From NCBI GenBank assembly GCA_965140415.1, contig OZ223209.1, positions 2,432,001-2,496,000 of the forward strand: a DNA stretch of 64,000 nt, written 5' to 3'. Numbering within the stretch: the stretch's first letter is position 1; every line of letters starts with the position of its first letter. This DNA comes from Myxococcota bacterium. GTDB lineage: Bacteria > Myxococcota_A > SURF-8. This document shows, in pieces, positions 50,582-63,598 of the stretch. Both the position numbers and the translations under genes were made by a program. Under the pieces are notes generated by a model that saw only the letters and a program-made list of their open reading frames with translations, was not told the DNA's origin and ran no database searches.

Positions 50582-52195
50582 CTACAATTCATACTCCACT
50601 TCGGTCAGTGGCGATTGTGGAGGCGAGTCGAGTTGTTGCGCGAACGGCTCCGCTTGTCCGAACGCACGCTGAACGAAGGGAAGGGTGTAACTTGTGACAA
50701 TCTGCATTTGCTGTCGCCGGGTGACGCTTGGCTCACCGTCGAACATGGTGTAAACCTTCGCGTCGCAGAATGAGCCATGATTGCCGCCTTGAACGACGAT
50801 TTTCCATTTCGGGTCGGCTTCGAGGTTATATGCGGCATTGTAGATAAACGCGGCACTTTGGTAATCTTCCGTTGCGCCGAAGACCATGAAAGGACCGGGA
50901 GTATTGTAGCCTTCATCATGCGGACCGACGAAAATCGAGGCAAGAGAACTTGCTTCAATGTCCGGATGATCTTCATACACGTTCTGCATGCGCGCACAGC
51001 CGCGCGAATGACCCAGCATAATCAACTCCGTGGTGGTTGAAACTCCGGTCAAAGCCGGATGAATGTCGTCGAGTGTCTGGCCTTGAACGTCTTCAAGTAA
51101 ATCGTGTACGATTCGCACTGCCTCCGGGTCGTATTCATTATTGTGCGGTGTTGCGGGCATCACCGAAACGAATCCCCAGGTGGCGAAGAACTGGCCGAGA
51201 TATTCCAGGTTGATGTACGCCGCTCCATTACCGTGCAATAACACGATCAACGGGTAGGTGCCTGGAATCGCTGGACGGCGGATCGAGCCGCAGGCGGCAG
51301 GATAAAAAAGGCGGGCCTGGTGTTCGCTCATGTCCAGGTATCCGGCAGCATATGGACCTGTTTCACCCAGAGTTGATGAAGGCGTCATTGACGCAGCAGG
51401 AGTGCTGCCGTCGCAGGTAATCACGCCTGTCGGCGCCTGGCTGAACGATTCGGAACTAGTAACTAAGAGATTTCCTTCACACAGTACGGAAATCAGACCG
51501 GAAGCACCGCTGGGAACGTTGACCAGAATGCGGTTTTCCCCAGTGGCTACGGCGGTGAATCCGCTGATTGTGGTCTGACCAATCGTGATTTGTACGGATG
51601 TGCTCCCCCAGACATTTGCGTAAAAACGTTTGCCATCGATGGTCAGTACATCTCCAGGAGCGCCCGCAAGGGGGTGAAAGCCGAAGATTTCAGGCACGGT
51701 GTCTAGCCAACTGCTGCGGCGCTCGCAACGTCCGAGCGAATAATTGCAAATCAGGTCCGAGGGGCACTGTGCATGGGAGTGGCAAAATGAAGGCAGAACT
51801 GGATCGGCGTCTTGCTCCGTATCATCGCCATCCGGTGCAACGTCGCCATCTGGAATGTCGTTCCCATCGAGATCGCCATCTGTCATGTCGCCGTCTATGG
51901 CATCGCTATCCGATTGGTCTCCATCTATGAGATCTCCATCCGAAATGTCGCCGTCGGATGGAATATCAATCGTATCGCTGTCCCAATCGTCTCCATCAAC
52001 AGGTGAAAAATCCGTGTCGCCGGCTGCATCGCCGTCCGTTATAAAATCCCCATCGCTGGTGTTTGGTGGATGATACTGCGGGATTTCACTGTCACCATCG
52101 CCAGAGACTTCTTCTTCACTACATGAATTCGCAAAAAGAGATAGTCCCAGCAGAGTAGCAAGCAGCACGAGCATGAGATCGGATGTGTGTTTCAT
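50582..52195 (-). CDS. Lipoprotein: DGD repeats, Cys module, IPT/TIG-like domain, alpha/beta hydrolase (chlorophyllase/lipase-like)
   Basis: Signal peptide ending ANSC; ten or more DGD motifs; YPLIVLLHGNG..FATWGFV, GHSRG, GGNHGSF. Confidence 0.78.
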   Translation of the reverse strand: MKHTSDLMLVLLATLLGLSLFANSCSEEEVSGDGDSEIPQYHPPNTSDGDFITDGDAAGDTDFSPVDGDDWDSDTIDIPSDGDISDGDLIDGDQSDSDAIDGDMTDGDLDGNDIPDGDVAPDGDDTEQDADPVLPSFCHSHAQCPSDLICNYSLGRCERRSSWLDTVPEIFGFHPLAGAPGDVLTIDGKRFYANVWGSTSVQITIGQTTISGFTAVATGENRILVNVPSGASGLISVLCEGNLLVTSSESFSQAPTGVITCDGSTPAASMTPSSTLGETGPYAAGYLDMSEHQARLFYPAACGSIRRPAIPGTYPLIVLLHGNGAAYINLEYLGQFFATWGFVSVMPATPHNNEYDPEAVRIVHDLLEDVQGQTLDDIHPALTGVSTTTELIMLGHSRGCARMQNVYEDHPDIEASSLASIFVGPHDEGYNTPGPFMVFGATEDYQSAAFIYNAAYNLEADPKWKIVVQGGNHGSFCDAKVYTMFDGEPSVTRRQQMQIVTSYTLPFVQRAFGQAEPFAQQLDSPPQSPLTEVEYEL

Positions 52196-52219
52196 GGTTC
52201 ACTCTCAATAAAGATCGAT

Positions 52220-54154
52220 TTAGCAGGTTTCGCGACGGCTCCGGTGTATCAGGAATCCAAATAAAATGAAAACAAGTGAAAGCAAACAGGACATCCCTTG
52301 CGCTTGGTGACATCCACCTGCGCTGCCGATTTCTCCGCTGCCATCTTGTGAAATGCAACCTCGTGCCGCATCACACTGCAACCCTTCGGCTTCGCAGTCG
52401 CGACTGTCCAACCAGTTTTCATCGTATGAGCATTGCTGGAAGATCCCATTCTCGCAGCGTGTCTCTCCGGTCTCGCAGCGGATGGAAAGACTTTCCTCAT
52501 TTTCAATTTCGTCCATGTCGCCATCGGAATACTCCTCATCTGCAACCGGAAGAATAAAGTCCGAATCGCCATATTGGATCGGAAGATTGCCGTCGGGTGA
52601 CGTGTCGCCATCAGAAAGTTGTTCTACACATTGTCCCAGATTGCAGATCCAGCCTTCATCGCAGGATTCCAGTAAATTCCAAGAGCCGTTCGCGTCGCAG
52701 ATCCAAACGGAATTATCCAAACCGCATTCCCGTTCACCCTCCACACATTCAACAACGGCTTCCACATCCTGATCGCCATCTTCAGGGGAGTCCCCGTCGC
52801 CGTCAATCGGCTCATCGGTCTCGGGTAAGATGATTTCTCCCTCTGCCAGCGGTGTGTCGCTGTCTTCTTCGCCCAGCTCGCAATCCCCCTCGACAATGCG
52901 AAAGCGACTATAGAAGCTTCGGGTTCGATCTCCGGTCACTTCCACTTCCAGGTCGTGAATGCCAACCGCGAGTTCCTGTGTGTTGAAGCTGCCTCGCCAT
53001 TGTTCTGGAATGGCAGGGTGTTGCAATAAGGTTTGCCAGCTTTCGGAGTCGACCCGAAAGCGCATATTGGATGGTTCCAGCAGATCGAACAGCAGCACGC
53101 GCACCGGGGCCTGCTCGCAGGAATTAGACACTGGGGGCGCATGGGGATTGTCTTGCCACTCCGATTCTCCATCTGCCGAGAATTGAGCGGGAGCCGGGGC
53201 TGTGATTACAGCTAAAGGCCAGGGCTGCTCTGCGTTGACAACCGTTTGGCTGAGGCAGTGATTGTCCAGCGCATACACCGCCAGGTTGTTGTCCGATCCC
53301 TGACCCAGCGAATCGATTCTGAATCGGATCACGTCATCCGAGCCGAGACGGATGCCTCGGTCGTGCTCGTGACCGTGGGCATAGAACGTCGCTCCTTCTC
53401 TAATCAGCAGATCGGAGAAGGCTTCGTTGTTGTCCACATCGAGATAGTCGTGATGGCTGAAAATCATGGTCATTTCACTGCTGCCGAGCGCTTGCAGATT
53501 TTCTTCCAGTTCCAACAATTCCCAATCCGTGAAAATCGCGTTATCCCACCACCACTGTTGACCGTCGTTGGCGGAGTCCGCCGCAGCGGCAAAGCGATAG
53601 CGGCCATAAGGCATATCCAGAGCCCAATAGGGTTGCGTGGTGCGATAGGTTACACCGGAATAGGAATAGGCAAGATAGTAGTTCAATTCGCCGTCGCCGT
53701 AAGCATCGTGATTGCCTGCAAGGTCGAAATAGAAATCCGGGGTAAGTCCGGCCTGCTCCAGGTAGCCGCGATATTCCTGCCATTCTTCGACATGAGGACC
53801 GGTGCCGTAGACGACGCCATCGGTGGAGTCGGTCAGATCGCCGGTGGTGACAATGAACCAGGGATCGACGGTATCGGCAATTTCCGTAGCGACGCGATAG
53901 AGCTTGTCGCCATACGTCTGATTGAAAAACGTGGAAACGTGCGTGTCGGAAATCTGGATGAACCAGAATATATGGCTGCCATCGGCCAGATAGGCTGGAT
54001 TTTCTAGCTCGTTTTCCTGTGCCTGCGCGATATTGATGGAGAGAAATAAAAGCAGAATAGATGTAAGCACGCAGATTGGTATCCGGCTGCGTTTCGATTC
54101 GAAAACGGAAGCCGCCGTATGGCGTTTTGCTTTCTCGATTGTTTCTGCTGTCAT
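52220..54154 (-). CDS. Surface metallophosphoesterase (calcineurin-like, TMEM62-N-like) with DGD/Cys repeats and MYXO-CTERM-like anchor
   Basis: QISDTHVS, TGDLTD, GNHD, HHD, GHEH; C-terminal SAGGC followed by a hydrophobic helix and HRSRR. GGAG RBS. Confidence 0.8.
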   Translation of the reverse strand: MTAETIEKAKRHTAASVFESKRSRIPICVLTSILLLFLSINIAQAQENELENPAYLADGSHIFWFIQISDTHVSTFFNQTYGDKLYRVATEIADTVDPWFIVTTGDLTDSTDGVVYGTGPHVEEWQEYRGYLEQAGLTPDFYFDLAGNHDAYGDGELNYYLAYSYSGVTYRTTQPYWALDMPYGRYRFAAAADSANDGQQWWWDNAIFTDWELLELEENLQALGSSEMTMIFSHHDYLDVDNNEAFSDLLIREGATFYAHGHEHDRGIRLGSDDVIRFRIDSLGQGSDNNLAVYALDNHCLSQTVVNAEQPWPLAVITAPAPAQFSADGESEWQDNPHAPPVSNSCEQAPVRVLLFDLLEPSNMRFRVDSESWQTLLQHPAIPEQWRGSFNTQELAVGIHDLEVEVTGDRTRSFYSRFRIVEGDCELGEEDSDTPLAEGEIILPETDEPIDGDGDSPEDGDQDVEAVVECVEGERECGLDNSVWICDANGSWNLLESCDEGWICNLGQCVEQLSDGDTSPDGNLPIQYGDSDFILPVADEEYSDGDMDEIENEESLSIRCETGETRCENGIFQQCSYDENWLDSRDCEAEGLQCDAARGCISQDGSGEIGSAGGCHQAQGMSCLLSLVFILFGFLIHRSRRETC

Positions 54155-54182
54155 GTAAAACTCCATCGAGTGATTTGAAGCA

Positions 54183-55394
54183 TCAGGCGGAATCGGCGAC
54201 ATCCAGTACGATCTTGATCGCCTGTTCTTTCCCTTTCGATAAAAAGGCTTTGACGGCCTGCTTGTATTCGCTTACCGGGAAACGATGCGTGATGATATCC
54301 GCAGGATCAACGACTTGTTTCTTTAACAGCTCCGCCGCCACGTCGAAGGAGTTGCGTTCTTCGGTCTCCGATGCATGACAGTTGATGCCGACCAGGTTGA
54401 TCTCTTTGGCCCACACCGGCGAATAATCGATTTTCCCTGGTTGGAAGTTGATTCCGATCAAGACCAAACTGCCCCCGCCGCGAGTCCAGCGCAAGGCCTT
54501 GGTTACAGTAGAGTCGTTTCCGACGGTGTCGTAAATAACGTCGAATCCTCCGAGCAGGATTTCATTTCCGAAATAGCCTTTGATATAGCGCCCGCCGGTG
54601 ATATCTGCAAATTGGCTATAAAGCGATTTCGTTTCCATAACGGGTGTCGCCCCCAGTTTTTCCACCACGGTGGCCTGGAAACAATGGCGAGTGAGGCAGT
54701 ACACGTCCGCTTGAGGGAAGAGTCCGCGTACCGCCGCCACGGTCATCAGGCCGATGGTTCCCGCTCCAAGCACAAGCACCTTCTGGCCGGGTTGTGGATT
54801 GGCTTTGAGTGCGCCGTGGGCTGCGCTGGCAAGCGGTTCCAGTAACAGCGCCTGATCGTTCGTAAGTTCCGCCGGGATTTTGTAGGGCTGGCTTTTATGC
54901 ATGACCATCAAAGGTGAAAAACCGCCGCCGACATCACGGATGGGCAACTCTTTACTTCCCTGATTTTCACACAGCATGTAATTGCCGCGCGCGCATTGAG
55001 GGCAGGGCGGGTCGATCTCCAACTGATTGCAGGAGGGCCAGTCGATGCGCATGGCCACCCGATCGCCAACAGCGACCGTATCGACGTCGGAACCCGCCTC
55101 GATCACTTCGCCCACCAGTTCATGTCCCAGGAATTTCCGGCTGATTCCTGGAATGGCGGCGGGGTAGCACTTCGGGTCCATTTCCATGAACATGAAATGC
55201 AGATCGGTGCCGCACAATCCGCAACTGAGGTTGCGCACCTTCAGCCAGCGAGAATTTGGGATATGCGGCTCGGGAACATCGGCATACTTCAAACTGGAAA
55301 AGGGGCCAAGGGCTGCGTAACGATCGAAGACGGAGGCGACTTTCAGCGTGGCGACCTGGGACAGCTTGTTTTCGAAATACAGGGCTTTCATCAT
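54183..55394 (-). CDS. Zinc-dependent medium-chain dehydrogenase/reductase
   Basis: CGLCGTD, LGHELVG, C..CPQC..C structural Zn site, EPLA, GAGTIG. TAATG overlap with the upstream stop. Confidence 0.92.
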   Translation of the reverse strand: MMKALYFENKLSQVATLKVASVFDRYAALGPFSSLKYADVPEPHIPNSRWLKVRNLSCGLCGTDLHFMFMEMDPKCYPAAIPGISRKFLGHELVGEVIEAGSDVDTVAVGDRVAMRIDWPSCNQLEIDPPCPQCARGNYMLCENQGSKELPIRDVGGGFSPLMVMHKSQPYKIPAELTNDQALLLEPLASAAHGALKANPQPGQKVLVLGAGTIGLMTVAAVRGLFPQADVYCLTRHCFQATVVEKLGATPVMETKSLYSQFADITGGRYIKGYFGNEILLGGFDVIYDTVGNDSTVTKALRWTRGGGSLVLIGINFQPGKIDYSPVWAKEINLVGINCHASETEERNSFDVAAELLKKQVVDPADIITHRFPVSEYKQAVKAFLSKGKEQAIKIVLDVADSA

Positions 55395-56650
55395 TACGCC
55401 TCCTGGCCGCTGGACGATTCCAGGTTATCCAACGCCGTTGCAACGGCAAGAAGAAGGTCATCCGCTTCCTGCTTGCTTAGCAGAAGGCTGGGGCGGAGTA
55501 AAACCGTGTTTCTTGCTACTTTCCCCGTTTGAGCCAACACTCCGGCTATGGATAATTCCCGGCAGAAATCCGTTGCGGCTTGCTCGCTCTTTAATTGCAG
55601 AGACAATAACAAGCCTTGACCGGCAACACTTCGAAGAGTGGCCTCATGTTGCGTCGAAAGGTTCTCCAGTGCTTTTTTCAACTCAGCTCCGATAGCCGAG
55701 GCATTATCCCAGGGATGAGCTTGTTCATAGACTTTTAGGGCTTTTGTGGCGACGCGGCAGCCTAAGTCGGAACCTCCGAATGTGGAAAGGTGAATCATGG
55801 GGTGATCGTTTAAAAAAGCGTTTACACGTTGGGTCAGTACCGTCGCGCAAATAGGGAACATGCCGCCACCCAGCGCTTCTCCAACAATCAGAATATCCGG
55901 TTGAATCGCGTAGGATTCGAAAGCAAAGCGTTTGCCTGTGCGTCCGAAACCGGTCTGGGTTTCGTCGAAGATCAACAGCGCGCCGTGACGATCGCACAAT
56001 GACCGCAAGGTACTGAGATAGTTCTTATCGATCGTGCGGCAATGATTTTCCGCCTGGGTAAGTTCAAGGATCACTGCGGCGGTATTGGAGGATATCGCTT
56101 GTTTCGCTTGTTCGATGTCGTTAAACGCGATTGTTTTCGTGTTCGGGATCAGGGGGGCATAGGTGTCTTTATCCACTCGCTCAGATAGCGTCAGTGCGAA
56201 ACCGGTTTCGCCGTACCAGCCGCCGTCTACCGTGATCAGTTCCTGTCGTCCCGTGAAGCCTCGTGAAACCTTGCAGGCGCATTCCACTGGTTCGCCGCGC
56301 ATCACACTGAAGACCGAGCATTCCAGTGGGCCGGGTATGAACTCGGAAAGTGTTTGCGCAAGCATCGCCTTTTCTTTTGAGATCATCGGAAAGTTGCCCT
56401 GATCCGTCTGGGTCAAGGCGACATTCAACTCCTGCGCCAATTCCGCGTGATGGCGTCCCAGGTTGAAGGCACCGCCGGAACTGTGGCAGTCTATATAGCG
56501 TTTTCCGTTTTCATCGAAAACGAGTGAACCCTCGCGTTTGGATTCGATGATGTCCAGCCCGTTACGTTTCAACTCGGTGAGCATGGCCGGAGAAAAAAGC
56601 CGGGCGAAATCGTCTTTCAGTTGTTTTGCCGTGTTTTGTTGTTTAGACAT
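55394..56650 (-). CDS. Class-III aminotransferase-fold protein lacking the PLP lysine (subunit B)
   Basis: [11 protein letters not shown] and HLSTFGG retained; DILIVGEALGGG has Glu (GAA, 55877-55879) at the Lys position. Confidence 0.85.
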   Translation of the reverse strand: MSKQQNTAKQLKDDFARLFSPAMLTELKRNGLDIIESKREGSLVFDENGKRYIDCHSSGGAFNLGRHHAELAQELNVALTQTDQGNFPMISKEKAMLAQTLSEFIPGPLECSVFSVMRGEPVECACKVSRGFTGRQELITVDGGWYGETGFALTLSERVDKDTYAPLIPNTKTIAFNDIEQAKQAISSNTAAVILELTQAENHCRTIDKNYLSTLRSLCDRHGALLIFDETQTGFGRTGKRFAFESYAIQPDILIVGEALGGGMFPICATVLTQRVNAFLNDHPMIHLSTFGGSDLGCRVATKALKVYEQAHPWDNASAIGAELKKALENLSTQHEATLRSVAGQGLLLSLQLKSEQAATDFCRELSIAGVLAQTGKVARNTVLLRPSLLLSKQEADDLLLAVATALDNLESSSGQEA

Positions 56651-58064
56651 GACGACCTCCTTTCAATGAACCACCAACGCGTTTGACGCCGTCTTCCACC
56701 TTTCGGATAATACCGAATAACGAGGTTTGGAATTTCTCGCTGTTTAACAGATCGCGAAGCGGTTTGATGCGGGCGGCAGGTAGCGCAAGAGGAAGTAGAA
56801 TCTTCATGTCCTTGACCGCGCCTTCAATCGCTTCGATTAGAAGATCCATTTCCTGATCGTTGATGGTGATTGGAGCCATGAAGCGCATGACCTGTGGTGC
56901 ATTGCCGGAATATGCTGCAAACACGCCGTGTTTGGCCAGCGCATCGGACATCATCGGTCCCATGAATTCGTGGATGTATTCAATCCCTACCATCAGGCCG
57001 ATGCCGCGCACGTCCTTGATGATCTTGGGATTACGTTCCCGCAGACGCAGCAGCGCTTCCCGCAGCTTGTCGCCCATGCGCTGCGAATTTTCCCACAAGC
57101 GATTTTCTTCCAGGTACTCCAGCACTTTCAGGGAAACGCGACATCCCAAATCGGAGCCGCCGGTGGAGGTCGGGTGAAAGTCGGGATGAGCATCGACGAA
57201 AGCCGTCAGTTGTTCGGAATCGCGGTACAGCATCGCGGCATTGGGATAAAGCGAGCCGCCAAGCGATTTGGCGACCGTCATGATATCCGGAACGACGCCG
57301 GAATGTTCGCAGGCGAAAAGTTTGCCGGTGCGCCCGAAACCGGTTTGGATTTCGTCGAAGATCAAAATTGCACCAGTCTGGTCGCAAAGCTCGCGCAGTC
57401 CTTTCAAGTAGCCGGTTTCCCCAACAAAGATTCCGGCTTCGCCCTGCACCGGCTCTACGATAATCGCGGCGGTTTCACTGTTGACGGCTTCTTTCATTGC
57501 TTGCAGATCGTTAAAGGGAACGAAGGAAAAACCGGGCATCAGCGGTTCGCAGTAGTGCCGGTAATGCTCCTTGCCGTTGGCGCTCAACGAGAAGCCTGTA
57601 TGTCCATGGTAGGCTTTGATGGTGCTGACGATGTGACTGCGCCCGGTTGCGCCACGGGTGAGTTTGATTGCGCAATCCACCGCATCGCCACCCCCTGCGG
57701 CGAAGAGAATCCGGTTCAAGCCGTCGGGAGACATCTCGACCAGTTTTTTCGCGAAAGCAATTTTGTGCGGCGAAATCAATCCGCTAAGTCCCATGTCCAG
57801 ATCTTGCAGTGCGTCTTGCAGTGCGCCCATAATTTCAGGGTTATGCCTGGATACGTTGAAACTTCCGGCGGAAGAGAAACAGTCGAACATGCGGCGGCCT
57901 GAAATCGGATCGGTAAAGTGAACGCCAAGGCGCTCGGTTTCGAAAACATCCAGGTGCCCGGCTTTTAGATACTTGACTTGTCCTCGGTTGATATACCGTT
58001 CGAAAGTCGAGACGATACGCCGGACTTCCTCGGCATCGATGCGCTCCGGATTCGTATTGGTCAT
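56643..58064 (-). CDS. Class-III PLP aminotransferase (subunit A)
   Basis: [38 protein letters not shown] (PLP Lys), VRGIGLMVG. Overlaps the next gene by 8 bp. Confidence 0.92.
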
Positions 58065-58383
58065 GGACACTCTTCCTTCCTGCATGAGTGGAACTCAACT
58101 GCTATTATCTGCCTTCACGTTCACCGGATACAATAATTACAACTTATCCGCGTGGGTGGTAGCGATTCAATATCTGCGTCTTGTTTCGTGTTGCAAATTG
58201 GCTTCGACGTCTTAATCGTCACTGTACTCAAAAAGAAGCGAGGTTGAAAGTAGATTTTACAGCAGGGAAGGACATTTTCAGCGATTCGGAAGCTGCGTTT
58301 TGCACGTAGGCGCATTCCTGCAACAAGGCGCAAGACCAGCTCTATCGAGCTTCAGGCTATGGGAACTGTGCTGGCACTGACTC

Positions 58384-59235
58384 TCAGAATACTTCCACCG
58401 CTTCCAATGGAACGGGCGGGTAAATCTGTCCGTGGGAAGGCGGCATGGAGTTATACACCCAGTCGATATCTACCGCTCCCAGCGACAACGGCAGCGGTCC
58501 GAAGGAGCGCTGCGAGTGATACCGTCCACGCACCAGGACACTTTCCATTTTCAACGTCATTGCGAATATGGCAACCGGCGTATCCGGCTTGATGTCGCGA
58601 AGCTCGTCGCTGTAGGGGAAGCGCGTAAAGACGAGGCGGCGCGGGTCTGTCGGCTGGCATTGCAACAACGGGATGATACGCGGGTAGCCATCCGTATCGA
58701 TTGCGGCCAGAAATGCGAGTGAATCCAGTTTGGAAAGCAACTCCATGCCAAAGGCGGACAGCATCTTTTCGTCACCCTTGCGACCGGCTCCGAACTTGGA
58801 AAGTTTGGTTAAAATTGAAGCGGGAACGATGCTTTTTACCGGCAATGGTTCTTTTTCCGTGGTTTCTACCAGATCCATGTAATGCACGGTGTTGATGCCG
58901 AAATAACTGTTGTAGCGGAACATCGGCTTTTCGTTGAACATCGTGTAATCGTCGCCTTCGCGCAGCAGATGCGTCCAGGTGGCTTTGCCGCGCCAGAGTT
59001 CGCGATCGGCGGACATGATCAGAAAGCCGGTTTTGGGATTTTGCTGCACGTGTTGTTTGGATAAACCGATGCAGAACTGTCCCCAAATCACCTGGGTCGG
59101 TGTCTTTGCCTGCAAGGATGTAATCAAGGAGATGTGAGGCAATCCCTGGGGGTTGACCGTCGCCAAAAGCCCGACTTTTTCTGCCGGTTCAAAGGCTTTC
59201 ATGTCCTGTTCGGAAAACGCTTGTTTTATAGTCAC
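58384..59235 (-). CDS. Tandem pyridoxamine-5'-phosphate-oxidase-like (split barrel) protein
   Basis: Two halves: GLLATVNPQGLPHIS..HVQQNPKTG and AFLAAIDTDGYPRII..DIKPDTPVAI. GGGG RBS before GTG. Confidence 0.72.
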   Translation of the reverse strand: MTIKQAFSEQDMKAFEPAEKVGLLATVNPQGLPHISLITSLQAKTPTQVIWGQFCIGLSKQHVQQNPKTGFLIMSADRELWRGKATWTHLLREGDDYTMFNEKPMFRYNSYFGINTVHYMDLVETTEKEPLPVKSIVPASILTKLSKFGAGRKGDEKMLSAFGMELLSKLDSLAFLAAIDTDGYPRIIPLLQCQPTDPRRLVFTRFPYSDELRDIKPDTPVAIFAMTLKMESVLVRGRYHSQRSFGPLPLSLGAVDIDWVYNSMPPSHGQIYPPVPLEAVEVF

Positions 59236-59251: not shown

Positions 59252-60286
59252 TTATCTGATATTGCAGGGATTGAATGATTGCGGTTGGATATCCCGCTCC
59301 TGCTCTCCTGGTTCCTCGTCCAACTGGGTCGAACCGGACCAGTGAACGCATCCTTCGTAAACTCCGGATTCTCTAGCGATCTCGGATAGTTGGTTCATCT
59401 GCTGCTTCGTCATCAGTTCACAGTTCGCAAATTGCCAGTTTCGACCGAGTCGCAGGTATTTGTCCTGGCAGAGATTATTGAAGGCGCAGAGTTCCCAGCG
59501 CGAAAGCAGACCGTTGAGTTCTTCTGCCAAAAAGCTACCGATGCCTCGGATGTTTTCGGCTGTATCGGTCGCTCCGGGGATAATCGGCGTACGCACCCAC
59601 AATGTGCCTCCATTGGATTGCAGATAATCGCGAACGTGGCGCAGGTTGTCCTGAATACGCAGATTGTCACTGCCGGTGAAGTTCTTGTGTTTTTCTGAAT
59701 CAATTTCTTTCACGTCGAACAATACCAGATCGGCATGCTTCAACAGACGATCCAGTGCTTCGGGTTGGCATTGGCCACAGGTATCGATAGCGGTATGAAT
59801 GCCTTCTTTGTGCAATCCGGCCAATAATTGCGCCGCCGCTTTCGATTGCAGTGTTACTTCACCACCGGAGAGTGTCACGCCGCCACCCGATTTTTCGAAA
59901 TAGGCGCGGTCTTTCAATAACTCATGCAGCAACTTGTCCACAGGCCAGTCCGTTCCCCATAATTCCAGGGCGGTGCTGGGGCATTCTTCCGCACAAGCGC
60001 CGCAACCTTCGCAACGTTGCCGGTCGATTTGAATACCCTGCGCTGTGGCCGATAGCGCGTTATTGGGACAGACTTCTAGGCAACTGTGACAGCCGATACA
60101 ACGGGATTCGATCCACTGTATTTGCGGGCGTGAATCGATGCTTTCAGGATTGTGGCACCAGGAACAGGCCAGGCTGCATCCTTTCAGAAAAACGGTCGTA
60201 CGGATGCCGGGACCGTCTTCGGTGCTCATACGCTGGATTTCCAACACGCGCAAGCTGGATTCGGAAACTTCGGCGGCAGAAGACAT
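59252..60286 (-). CDS. Glycyl-radical enzyme activating enzyme (radical SAM with 2x[4Fe-4S] insert)
   Basis: EDGPGIRTTVFLKGCSLACSWCHNPES; CIGCHSC..CP and CEGCGAC..CP; GGVTLSGGE. Confidence 0.96.
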   Translation of the reverse strand: MSSAAEVSESSLRVLEIQRMSTEDGPGIRTTVFLKGCSLACSWCHNPESIDSRPQIQWIESRCIGCHSCLEVCPNNALSATAQGIQIDRQRCEGCGACAEECPSTALELWGTDWPVDKLLHELLKDRAYFEKSGGGVTLSGGEVTLQSKAAAQLLAGLHKEGIHTAIDTCGQCQPEALDRLLKHADLVLFDVKEIDSEKHKNFTGSDNLRIQDNLRHVRDYLQSNGGTLWVRTPIIPGATDTAENIRGIGSFLAEELNGLLSRWELCAFNNLCQDKYLRLGRNWQFANCELMTKQQMNQLSEIARESGVYEGCVHWSGSTQLDEEPGEQERDIQPQSFNPCNIR

Positions 60287-60297
60287 CAACAACTCCC

Positions 60298-62814
60298 TTA
60301 GTAACGCTCGTGACTGATGCGGGCGATGACTTCGTCCTGCAATTCTTTTCCGACGCTGGTGAAATAGGCATTATAACCGGTGATGCGCACCAGCAAGTGC
60401 CGGTAATCCTGTGGGTGTTTCTGCGCGTCGCGCAGCATATCGGGATCGAGCATGTTGATTTGCAGCGCAGTCCCGCCATTTTCGGTGTAGCCGCGTAAAA
60501 ACGCTTTGAACTTTTCTCGATGTTCGCCATCTTTTAGCAGCGAAGGATTGAAAGTGATGGTGTGACTGGCTCCGTTTGGCAGGTTGTTGTTATAGCCGTC
60601 CCAATCGCCTTGACCACTTTCGTCTTTTCCTCCCAGAACCTTGCCGACCGAGTTCGCGTTGCTGGTCGGGCCGTTGATATCCGCGCCGTTACTGGGGCAG
60701 ATGGCGTTGGAAAGGAATTGTCCCTTGGGACGTCCATTGGGGCTGGCGGTCATCACAAAGCCGTCTCCGGCCCAATAATTCCAACTGAGCATGCCCGGAC
60801 GGAACTGTCGGTCGGTCGATTTGGTTCGCTGCCGCCAGGTGTGATCGCACCACAAATCCATAACTCGGCGGCCAAGTTCGTCCGCGTGGTCGTCGTCACG
60901 TCCGTATTTCGGCGCTTTGTTCAAAGCTTTGGCCTGTAGTACCTCATGCCCCACCCAGTTGTCTTTTAGTGCAGCAATGAGTTCTTTCATGGTGCAGGCG
61001 CGCTTCTCGTACACCAAGTATTCGATGGCAAGCAGCGAATCGACGGTCGTTGCAAACGTGACTGCTTCCAGCGTGGTAAAGCTGATTTTCGCGCCTCCCT
61101 GGGTGATGTCTTTGCCGGATTCGGCGCAGCCTTGCACCATGCAGGAGAGATAGGGCGTCGGGAAGAATTTGGCGCGGACGGATTCGGAAGCCTCGTACAC
61201 TTCCGCGCATTTTTCGATGATGTAATGGGTCTGTTTTTCGTAAGCGCGCCAGAACTGCTCGAAATTCACAAAGGAACTCGGATCGCCGGTAATTGGACCA
61301 TCCTGGGTGATCGGCGAGACGGCTTTGGTGATCGGATCAACGAAGGGCAGCAGATCCTTGCCGTTTCCCAGCGTCAATTCAACCGCTTTTAACAGGTTCA
61401 GGTTGTTGTCTACCGTGCCGGAGCGGTCGTTTCCAACCATCGTGTTTTCCAGGCAGCCTACTGGGGCGTAGTCGTGAACGTTTTCCGGTGTAATGTCATT
61501 CTTATATGCGCTGGATTTGGCCTCGCGCATCATGCCTGCCATGGAGCGCTCGTCGAAATTCAACAGAAACGGCGCACCCTGGCTGGAGGCGATCATGTCG
61601 GTGACTTTTTCCAGCAAGTCATCCGGCGAGTTGCGGTGCAGGCGGACATTGGGTTTCGGTTCGAGTATCGGTGTCATCTCGTCGATGACTTCCAATATGG
61701 CGTAGGTCAACTCGTTCGTTAAATCCTGCCCGTTTGCGCCAATGCCGGAAAGCGTGAGAAGCTGTCCGAAGCCTGCCGTAATGCCTTGATTTCCATTGCG
61801 AATCTGAGCGTCGTATGCGGTGTTGCAATGCACCCAGAAGCATTTCATGATTTCCTTGCCGAATTCGCGGTCCATCCCGGCCTCGATGGAGCGCTGCCAA
61901 TAAGGCAGCAGATACTGATCGAGACGCCCGAAAGATACCCCCGGTCCGGGATAATTCTCGTCGCTCATCACCAGCATGTGATTGATCCACAGGGCCTGTA
62001 GCGCCTCCCAGAACGTTTGCGGAGGTTCCCAGGGAACGCGCTTGAGGTTATCCGCCATCTGCACTAATTCGGCTTTGCGTGTTTTGTCTGTTTCTTTTCC
62101 TGCCAGAATATGGCAGCGTTCCGCATATTTCCCGGCCAAGTCGCGGGGCATGGTGGCCGCGGTCATCATGGCGCGTAGCTGAGCGCCCTGCGATCCTTTC
62201 TGATCGGATTCGGAAAGCGCTTCGTAGCGGGTCTGCAATTCTTCGTAAACGCCTTTCCAGCCGATTTTCAGCAGCTTTTCGTGACCTGGAATCAGGTGGC
62301 CGCTGGTTGCGCCACTGTTGCCGTAGCCATGATCGTGAAACCATTTGACTTTGGAGCGTGCCCCGCCGGGTTGCATCGCCAAACGGCGGTAGTCGGCGGC
62401 TTCCTGTTTGTTCAGGCACATCGACGTTTGGATGTTGAAACGGGCTCCGGCGATCAGATCCTTCGGTAATATTTCCTGTGGTACATAGTTGACCATGACT
62501 TCCTTGACGAACCAGGCTCGTCGTTCGACCAGCGGCAATGACCAGAAGTCATGCGACAGTTTGACCGGGCGTGCCGCCTGGCGGTAGGAACCGTTTAACG
62601 TGTCGATCAGCGGATAGACTTCCGGGACGATATAAAAGGTCATTTCCTGAAAGACCACATCCCAGTCCGTACCGGTGCCCCAGGAGGTGAACTCGTTGTT
62701 CCAGGCGCGTTGCGCACCTTGGAAGTAATAGTCCCGAAGCCATTGAATGCGCTGGGACAAGGCCTTGGGTTCTTTTAACTGAGGTCGCGTAGAGGGTGTG
62801 GTTGCAACGCTCAT
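60298..62814 (-). CDS. Glycyl radical enzyme of unassigned class
   Basis: SFGRLDQYL, Cys loop APVGCLE (Cys codon 61453-61455), ASPNGR, Gly loop LLVRITGYNAYF (Gly codon 60376-60378); adjacent activase. Confidence 0.95.
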   Translation of the reverse strand: MSVATTPSTRPQLKEPKALSQRIQWLRDYYFQGAQRAWNNEFTSWGTGTDWDVVFQEMTFYIVPEVYPLIDTLNGSYRQAARPVKLSHDFWSLPLVERRAWFVKEVMVNYVPQEILPKDLIAGARFNIQTSMCLNKQEAADYRRLAMQPGGARSKVKWFHDHGYGNSGATSGHLIPGHEKLLKIGWKGVYEELQTRYEALSESDQKGSQGAQLRAMMTAATMPRDLAGKYAERCHILAGKETDKTRKAELVQMADNLKRVPWEPPQTFWEALQALWINHMLVMSDENYPGPGVSFGRLDQYLLPYWQRSIEAGMDREFGKEIMKCFWVHCNTAYDAQIRNGNQGITAGFGQLLTLSGIGANGQDLTNELTYAILEVIDEMTPILEPKPNVRLHRNSPDDLLEKVTDMIASSQGAPFLLNFDERSMAGMMREAKSSAYKNDITPENVHDYAPVGCLENTMVGNDRSGTVDNNLNLLKAVELTLGNGKDLLPFVDPITKAVSPITQDGPITGDPSSFVNFEQFWRAYEKQTHYIIEKCAEVYEASESVRAKFFPTPYLSCMVQGCAESGKDITQGGAKISFTTLEAVTFATTVDSLLAIEYLVYEKRACTMKELIAALKDNWVGHEVLQAKALNKAPKYGRDDDHADELGRRVMDLWCDHTWRQRTKSTDRQFRPGMLSWNYWAGDGFVMTASPNGRPKGQFLSNAICPSNGADINGPTSNANSVGKVLGGKDESGQGDWDGYNNNLPNGASHTITFNPSLLKDGEHREKFKAFLRGYTENGGTALQINMLDPDMLRDAQKHPQDYRHLLVRITGYNAYFTSVGKELQDEVIARISHERY

Positions 62815-63560
62815 GATTCACTCCTTGATGGTTGGTTGGACCGGATCGCAAGATTCAAATGCCGTTCGCCGTGATCGAGCAGACGCGTCATGACGGCGGT
62901 GGCTTTTGCCGCATCGCCCGCTTCGACGGCAAGCAGCAATTCATTATGAAACGATAAGACTTCGTCAATGCGAAGGCTGGGGCTTTGGTAAAACACTTCG
63001 GTGAGATTCAAGGTCAATGCTTTGAATGAATTCAATAAGAGCGGATAGATGGCGTTGTTACTTGCCATGGCGAGTTGATGGTGAAACGAGAAATCAAGCT
63101 CGCATCGCTTTGTCAATTCATCCGTGCTTAATGCCTCTTCCTGCTTCAAGATGCTTTGAAGGGTTTCAAGTTGCTCTTTGGAGCGCTCTAAGCAAGCCAG
63201 CCGGGCGGTTTCCATTTCGATCAGTTTGCGCATGGCCAGAGTGCTTTGAAGCAGGTGAGGTTCCATTGCCGGGCTGCGATAGTTGATCAGCGATTCCAGT
63301 AGCGCCAATGAGCCGCTCTGGCGATAATCGGCAACGACCGCGCCGTGTCTGGGTCGAATGATGACAAGCCCCTTGTACGCAAGATCCACCAGACCTTCAT
63401 GAACGACGGGCCGACTGACTCCGAGTTGGAACGCCAATTCACGCTCGGAAGGCAGGCGCTCGCCAATCGCCAGTTCGCCGGAAAGGATCAGGCTTTCCAA
63501 TTGAGAGATAAACGTTTCTTTGAGATTATCGCTTTTAATTGGTGCAAGTTGTGGTTTCAC
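62811..63560 (-). CDS. GntR/FadR-family transcriptional regulator
   Basis: GERLPSERELAFQLGVSRPVVHEGL wHTH; FCD motif D..FH..LAMASNN. GGGAG RBS before GTG; ATGA overlap with the GRE. Confidence 0.94.
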   Translation of the reverse strand: MKPQLAPIKSDNLKETFISQLESLILSGELAIGERLPSERELAFQLGVSRPVVHEGLVDLAYKGLVIIRPRHGAVVADYRQSGSLALLESLINYRSPAMEPHLLQSTLAMRKLIEMETARLACLERSKEQLETLQSILKQEEALSTDELTKRCELDFSFHHQLAMASNNAIYPLLLNSFKALTLNLTEVFYQSPSLRIDEVLSFHNELLLAVEAGDAAKATAVMTRLLDHGERHLNLAIRSNQPSRSES

Positions 63561-63578
63561 GAAAACGCTCCCACGTTC

Positions 63579-63595
63579 TGGTGGTATTACCACCA
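63579..63595. promoter_or_regulatory. Predicted FadR-type operator
   Basis: Perfect palindrome TGGTGGTA-T-TACCACCA containing the TGGT-N3-ACCA core. Confidence 0.72.
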
Positions 63596-63598
63596 CAA

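Follow-up and report, generated by a model that had tools for sequence, protein, structure and literature searches.

The window analysed here is a stretch of 64,000 nucleotides from a Myxococcota bacterium (GenBank assembly GCA_965140415.1, contig OZ223209.1, positions 2,432,001 to 2,496,000), and coordinates given without a locus name are positions within it. On the minus strand lie two overlapping genes, A and B, which encode paralogous class-III aminotransferases. We found that A carries the lysine that forms the Schiff base with pyridoxal phosphate (PLP) and that B does not, and the case that the two proteins would build one active site between them is set out below. The features of the pair are as follows.

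56643..58085, minus strand: gene A, class-III aminotransferase and putative catalytic subunit, 480 residues from the first ATG
55394..56650, minus strand: gene B, class-III aminotransferase paralogue without the lysine, 418 residues, proposed non-catalytic partner subunit
56643..56665, minus strand: A/B junction, with an 8-nucleotide overlap (ATGTCTAA) and AAAGGAGGT preceding the ATG of B
57267..57269, minus strand: A Lys273, which forms the Schiff base; conserved in 76 of 77 A-type sequences, with a gap in the remaining one
57156..57176, minus strand: A cross-subunit loop HPTSTGG, residues 304-310; position 307, which corresponds to Thr332* of E. coli YgjG, is unconstrained in the family
56691..56807, minus strand: A-specific C-terminal extension, residues 427-465; Arg461 is invariant
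55877..55879, minus strand: B Glu258 (GAA) at the position of the Schiff-base lysine; Glu in 120 of 120 sequences
55772..55792, minus strand: B cross-subunit loop HLSTFGG, residues 287-293; T, F, G and G each in 120 of 120
56291..56299, minus strand: B Arg118-Gly119-Glu120, invariant, standing in for the canonical phosphate-binding Gly-Thr-Glu
56378..56407, minus strand: B N-terminal loop TDQGNFPMIS, residues 82-91, highly conserved and in the modelled interface; the matching loop of A is variable

Gene A probably starts at its second ATG (58064, Met8), which has a better Shine-Dalgarno sequence than the first. A strong Shine-Dalgarno sequence, AAAGGAGGT, lies upstream of the ATG of gene B, and this together with the 8-nucleotide overlap suggests that translation of A and B may be coupled. 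Both proteins match Pfam PF00202 as full-domain members (A 285.2 bits and B 226.5 bits, cut-off 30.5), with A covering profile positions 10-402 and B positions 11-402 of 403, and they are 35% identical to each other. The best solved relative of both is YgjG of E. coli (4uox; 252 bits for A, 186 bits for B). Neither protein belongs to the YgjG/PatA family itself, since A and B score 299.3 and 233.7 with NCBIfam NF008570 (equivalog cut-off 612) and 248.5 and 197.8 with TIGR03372 (cut-off 658.65). Past the end of the YgjG alignment A carries a C-terminal extension of about 40-45 residues which is absent from both B and YgjG. Within it Met427, Leu431, Leu447, Gln453, Phe457, the invariant Arg461 and Glu464 are conserved, and its last part is amphipathic, with a hydrophobic moment up to 0.66. 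The extension may be a latch on B, or a contact with the membrane or another partner.

Active-site residues were mapped by HMMER alignments of A and B to YgjG (4uox), and the codon coordinates were verified. According to the YgjG structure report, the ligands of the PLP phosphate are Gly150 and Thr151 from one subunit and Thr332* from the other, Asp271 contacts the pyridine nitrogen, Lys300 makes the Schiff base, the PLP ring is sandwiched by Phe180 and Val273, and Glu243, Gln274 and Arg426 are strictly conserved (PMC4244111). The corresponding positions in the two proteins are these.

YgjG Lys300: Lys273 in A, Glu258 in B
YgjG Thr332*: Ser307 in A, Thr290 in B
YgjG Gly150-Thr151: Gly132-Gly133 in A, Arg118-Gly119 in B
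YgjG Phe180: Tyr159 in A, Trp145 in B
YgjG Asp271: Asp244 in A, Asp229 in B
YgjG Gln274: Gln247 in A, Gln232 in B
YgjG Glu243: Glu216 in A, Glu201 in B
YgjG Arg426: Arg401 in A, Arg386 in B

Thus the Schiff-base lysine is present in A (Lys273) but is replaced in B (Glu258), as it is in all 120 B-type proteins. The aspartate that contacts the pyridine nitrogen and the glutamine that contacts O3' are present in both proteins (Asp244 and Gln247 in A, Asp229 and Gln232 in B) and are invariant in both families. The threonine that the partner subunit donates from the x-T-[FY]-G-G loop is found in B (Thr290, 120 of 120) but not in A, which has Ser307. An earlier note on this DNA had described A as keeping its own-subunit PLP elements with a drifted loop HPTSTGG, and B as having VGEALGGG, MRGEPVE, GWYGET and ELTQAENH next to an intact HLSTFGG; all ten motifs that it quoted are present in the translations. 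The same note called the own-subunit motifs of B degenerate. They are more than that, as a new invariant set (Arg118-Gly119-Glu120 and Glu258) is in place and Asp229, Gln232, Glu201 and Arg386 have been kept.

Searching 5.8 billion proteins gave 119 B homologues at 49-61% identity from many sources, which with the copy in the window makes 120. We found that Gly-Glu at the lysine position, the T-F-G-G loop and Arg-Gly-Glu are present in all of them, and an alignment of 37 B-type proteins has about 60 invariant columns. Because the glutamate is universal and so many columns do not vary, we conclude from these alignments that B is a conserved protein family under purifying selection and is neither a pseudogene nor a read error.

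We then have to consider the loop that A would lend to a partner. At A position 307 the 77 A-type sequences contain H (22), Y (20), S (10), I (6), P (4), F (3), V (3) and L (2), and the residue is hydrophobic in at least 18 of the 77. Reciprocal constraint was assessed from column entropies with both families aligned jointly over 72 A/B pairs (71 loci and the window). Across the threonine loop, A positions 305-308 have entropies of 3.22, 1.23, 2.88 and 2.61 bits, and the B positions 288-291 have 0.18, 1.00, 0.00 and 0.11 bits. A similar picture is seen in the N-terminal loop of the modelled interface, with 1.56-3.32 bits at A 100-104 and 0-1.60 bits at B 86-90. The motifs of A's own site (YHGH, EPxQGExG, DExQT and AKS) are at about 0 bits. 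The relaxed parts of B are its ring-stacking position (1.37 bits) and the small-domain roof, residues 375-385 (0.25-3.03 bits, mostly above 1.5). As a control, all five unpaired class-III genes from this genome and related genomes retain both the lysine and T-[FY]-G-G. The simplest reading of these patterns is that selection on each protein would act only on its own share of a common site, namely the pocket of A and the cross-subunit loops of B. The trees of A and B are congruent (Mantel r 0.78, matched by 0 of 999 permutations), and B evolves at about 1.3 times the rate of A.

Gene order was examined in a set holding one genome per species (185,579 species), which was scanned with a pattern from the B alignment; the best 80 of 195 loci were used. 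In 76 of these 80, B is immediately preceded on the same strand by an A-type gene, which shares 48-74% identity with A and often overlaps B. The other four (L006, L024, L027 and L036) have B at a contig edge with the upstream DNA absent, so that an A-type gene directly precedes B in 76 of the 76 loci with upstream DNA. By record titles the loci come from Myxococcota, Thermodesulfobacteriota/"Deltaproteobacteria", Nitrospirota, Hydrogenedentota and Spirochaetota/Leptospirales, with further ones from Bacteriovoracaceae (Bdellovibrionota), Thermovirgaceae and Thermoleophilia. Among the genome of the window and 40 relatives, seven have a B-type gene; A adjoins it in six, and in the seventh A and B are on separate small contigs. 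Three more of these 41 genomes hold only an unpaired relative.

We also found A and B joined in a single chain. Four database proteins of 851-906 residues consist of an A-type half followed by a B-type half. The N-terminal half is 66-68% identical to A and has AKS, the C-terminal half is 52-61% identical to B and has GEALG and STFGG, and the C-terminal extension of A continues directly into the B half. For the fusions at the DNA level, metagenomes were scanned and 24 of 78 loci were examined for reading frame. In L094, L095 and L100 the DNA reads through as one frame of 856-863 codons without a stop. L094 and L095 come from two assemblies and encode an identical protein, and L100 is 86% identical. 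L101, which is 89% identical to the fused form, is not in a single frame. In four other metagenome loci (L096, L097, L098 and L099) an A-type and a B-type gene share a reading frame and are parted by one stop codon, and this codon is missing in the fused L094, L095 and L100. In two of the fused proteins, P0124 and P0126, the B half is without its first ~50 residues. Long open reading frames that run across both genes in the 80 species-genome loci (L077, for example) were rejected as fusions, being GC-rich shadow frames.

A model of the A+B complex scored 0.95 in three of three runs, and the best of three controls scored 0.01. The runs had at least 92% of contacts in common, with a partner predicted local distance difference test score of at least 93. 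Of 80 solved complexes 58 reach the mark used here, as do 2 of 110 mismatched pairs; these counts are only rough with our own alignments. The closest modelled contacts are those of A 24-32 with B 94-99 and of A 109-126 with B 14-19. Covariation between the proteins was scored as mutual information with average product correction over 76 non-redundant pairs, with the interface labels permuted 5000 times. Among the top 50 residue pairs 13 fall in the modelled interface, where 2.8 are expected and 34 of the 5000 permutations reach 13; among the top 200, 34 do so against an expected 11.1, a number reached by 50 of the 5000. The strongest pairs include Gly131 and Gly133 in the phosphate loop of A with B Ser289, the neighbour of Thr290.

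We propose that A and B together probably make up an obligate heteromeric class-III (fold-type I) PLP aminotransferase, be it a dimer (AB) or a tetramer, (AB)2, with one catalytic site per AB pair. In this enzyme A would supply Lys273 for the Schiff base, Asp244 for the pyridine nitrogen, Gln247, and Tyr159 for stacking on the ring, together with the Glu216/Arg401 switch pair and the phosphate loop at Gly132. From B, Thr290 of the H-L-S-T-F-G-G loop would reach across the interface to the PLP phosphate in the A site, and the conserved loop 82-91 would contribute to the substrate cleft of that site. The pocket of B would be unable to form an internal aldimine, having Glu258 for the lysine and Arg118 for the glycine, and it would be left uncompleted by A, whose matching loops drift. 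What the data show directly are the sequence features, their conservation across the family, the synteny and the fusions; the physical binding of A to B, the single active site, the type of reaction and the dependence of activity on B are inferred. A composite A/B site had been put forward in the earlier note, and the family-wide reciprocal constraint in 72 pairs and the natural fusions argue for it. That note also proposed to check whether the change from lysine to glutamate is conserved in B homologues and whether these always sit beside an A gene, and both checks come out in favour of its reading (120 of 120; 76 of 76 loci with upstream DNA and six of the seven B-carrying genomes among the 41). 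The pattern recurs in every relative examined and so is not a matter of chance. As the note further suggested, such an arrangement might free the second site for a bulky substrate or for regulation.

Several points weigh against the proposal of a single shared site. Ser307 of A could still hydrogen-bond the phosphate, which would make an A/A dimer conceivable in this organism. The agreement of the trees is expected from co-inheritance of neighbouring genes and does not require contact. Some of the fusions could be assembly errors, given L101. Any pair of class-III paralogues would be expected to reach such a score, given the solved homodimers of this class; the pass of the A+B model may reflect likeness to them, and the model does not discriminate A+B from A/A or B/B. 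The covariation is only suggestive of A-B contact, because few columns carry the signal (the top 50 pairs draw on 16 columns of A and 8 of B) and the split into two subfamilies contributes to it, part of the signal stemming from this split and from co-inheritance. Beyond the dehydrogenase or alanine dehydrogenase genes described below, the neighbours of the pair are not conserved. Last, the constraint on the pocket of B is more than one would expect of an empty pocket.

This last point bears on a different heterodimer, in which the B pocket would be a second ligand site that works without a lysine. It might hold non-covalent pyridoxamine phosphate or PLP, an amine substrate or an effector, and might serve regulation or a second chemistry; such an enzyme would have two chemically different sites, for example one for catalysis and another that acts as a sensor or as a reservoir of cofactor and thereby gates or feeds the first. 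We consider this unlikely. B retains Asp229, Gln232, Glu201 and Arg386, equivalent to four residues of YgjG that are strictly conserved, and has gained new invariants in Arg118, Glu120, Thr231 and Glu258 (120 of 120 or 72 of 72). However, the loop that should complete the B pocket from the partner side, A 305-308, is unconstrained, and in B itself the position that stacks on the ring (W in 53 of 72) is relaxed, as is the small-domain roof (2-3 bits). A salt bridge between Arg118 and Glu258 could equally plug the vacant cofactor site and so stabilise a cofactor-free pocket.

It is also conceivable that the two proteins do not meet at all, the enzyme being an A2 homodimer and B2 a separate non-catalytic binding or regulatory protein that is co-inherited through a shared pathway. 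Synteny, translational coupling and agreement of the trees are expected for any two proteins of one pathway, and in a B/B dimer the invariant Thr290 loop would complete the conserved pocket of B itself. Against this, an A2 enzyme would need an equivalent of Thr332*, yet the position varies in A and the five unpaired relatives all retain the threonine, and both the single-chain fusions and the enrichment of covariation at the interface indicate contact; we regard separate homodimers as very improbable. Hardly any credence is left for B as a decaying pseudogene or for the glutamate as a private sequencing or assembly error. The observed codon GAA differs from AAA by no more than one A-to-G change and nothing else favours this idea, which is refuted by the intact frame, by the same glutamate in 120 of 120 proteins from many phyla and by the roughly 60 invariant columns.

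The proposed A/B enzyme can be compared with several known systems. YgjG/PatA (4uox) shares the fold-type I class-III architecture, including an additional N-terminal helix packed against the partner subunit, and A has counterparts of its Lys300, Asp271, Gln274, Glu243 and Arg426. The two differ in that YgjG has identical subunits each with Lys300 and Thr332*, functions which here are split between A and B, and A has His162 in place of Lys183 and Ala73 in place of Phe91 as well as the conserved C-terminal extension (~45 residues). The closest precedent is SerTA (Ser4/Ser5) of Serratia sp. ATCC 39006, which is described as an active heterodimer whose activity requires residues from the inactive chain (PMC11726168). 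Its authors present their work as the first to relate structure to function in a heterooligomeric aminotransferase and report being aware of none before it (PMC11726168, FEBS Lett 2024). SerTA likewise comes from tandem genes for a full aminotransferase and a paralogue without the catalytic lysine. It differs in belonging to the sugar-aminotransferase (DegT-type) group, whereas A and B are both PF00202 proteins; in its Ser4 being truncated (24.6 kDa, mostly large domain), whereas B is full length at 418 residues; and in lying within a carrier-protein biosynthetic cluster, whereas A/B is a stand-alone pair in many phyla.

We found no heteromeric class-III aminotransferase in the full-text literature searched, in which most subscription journals are lacking, and SerTA was the only heterooligomeric aminotransferase found there. 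To our knowledge aminotransferases are otherwise described as homodimers or homotetramers. Among fold-type I enzymes more widely, the eukaryotic serine palmitoyltransferase (LCB1/LCB2) and the glycine decarboxylase P-protein (alpha/beta) each combine a lysine-less chain with a lysine-bearing one to give one site at the interface. These belong to other subfamilies, the alpha-oxoamine synthases and the glycine cleavage enzymes, which have other chemistry and are not aminotransferases. A dead paralogue and an impaired active paralogue also form the heteromer that is needed for activity in the trypanosomatid deoxyhypusine synthase, an enzyme of unrelated fold and cofactor from a eukaryotic parasite lineage (PMC3663545).

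What appears to be new is that the partner subunit proposed for a class-III aminotransferase is conserved and full length and yet has no lysine. In at least 76 species genomes, spread over many phyla, such a full-length class-III paralogue occurs strictly together with a catalytic one, and the B-type genes are annotated everywhere as ordinary aminotransferases. If the proposal is right this annotation needs correcting, as B-type proteins would be no enzymes alone and A-type proteins may be inactive alone. The pair would also be a clean natural case in which the gene of a symmetric dimer was duplicated and the two copies then degenerated reciprocally, and those who mine genomes for enzymes would be warned that such "omega-transaminase" candidates require co-expression. 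Finally, it would define an unassigned amine/aldehyde pathway module, in the form of either A-B-dehydrogenase or alanine dehydrogenase-amidohydrolase-A-B.

The gene that follows B in the window is the following.

54183..55394, minus strand: Zn-dependent medium-chain dehydrogenase, 403 residues; its ATG overlaps the stop codon of B by 1 nucleotide

The nearest characterised relatives of the pair are the putrescine aminotransferase YgjG and the aldehyde aminotransferase PigE, with scores far under the curated cut-offs. Because these are the nearest characterised relatives, the reaction is probably the interconversion of a primary amine and an aldehyde (or ketone), although the pair includes no YgjG orthologue. 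The best relatives of the dehydrogenase are threonine and polyol dehydrogenases, with low scores. A dehydrogenase of this type lies directly after B in 31 of the 80 loci as well as in the window, and an alanine dehydrogenase gene lies upstream of the pair in 20 of the 80. The alanine dehydrogenase context includes an Amidohydro_3 protein in 8 loci and a TetR regulator in 24 loci. The two contexts never occur together (0 of 80 loci), and the two sets separate on both trees. In the subfamily of the window the product would pass to, or come from, the translationally coupled Zn-dehydrogenase, an arrangement that suggests a route from amine to aldehyde to alcohol, or the reverse. For the sister subfamily the link to alanine dehydrogenase suggests pyruvate/alanine as the co-substrate pair. 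The invariant His162 of A is compatible with this pair; 2-oxoglutarate-using relatives presumably have Arg or Lys at that position.

When 105 flanking genes and 20 chosen neighbours were tallied by Pfam family, the recurrent ones were TetR, alanine dehydrogenase and Amidohydro_3 alone, and no recurrent transporter or further enzyme that would fix the substrate was found among the neighbours tallied. The signature of an iminosugar-type aminotransferase, phosphatase and dehydrogenase was considered and dropped, as no conserved phosphatase lies beside the pair. Scans of the DNA for promoters and terminators gave site numbers no higher than in shuffled sequence.

Just upstream of gene A four genes on the minus strand form an operon, whose first three span 59252-63596 and whose last, a PNPOx-like gene, lies at 58384-59235.

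62811-63596, minus strand: GntR/FadR-type regulator
60298-62814, minus strand: glycyl radical enzyme, 838 residues
59252-60292, minus strand: glycyl radical enzyme activase
58384-59235, minus strand: PNPOx-like protein

The glycyl radical enzyme carries a Gly-radical motif together with a Cys/Glu loop of the form G-C-L-E, as in eliminase or dehydratase members of its family. It stays far under all curated cut-offs, the best NCBIfam score being 419 where 678 is required; its best match in the PDB is HypD (311 bits), and the PFL-like match does not include about 170 residues at the N-terminus. Downstream, at 50582-54202 on the minus strand, the gene for a 660-residue metallophosphoesterase overlaps the dehydrogenase stop codon by 20 nucleotides, and after it comes one for a protein of 537 residues. 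The former protein begins with a hydrophobic segment; the latter has an N-terminus resembling a lipobox, a TIG domain and a weak match to chlorophyllase/alpha-beta-hydrolase. Both of these proteins have predicted export signals, and neither is conserved beside A/B elsewhere. The glycyl radical enzyme operon and the PNPOx-like, metallophosphoesterase and hydrolase-like genes were considered as parts of one pathway with the pair and rejected, having no counterpart within 8 kb of it in the 80 loci. In one related locus (L009:3783-6401, plus strand) an aspartokinase-type amino-acid kinase is fused to an Orn/DAP-type PLP decarboxylase directly upstream of A, B and the dehydrogenase, an arrangement seen once, which for the genome concerned might point to a diamine pathway.

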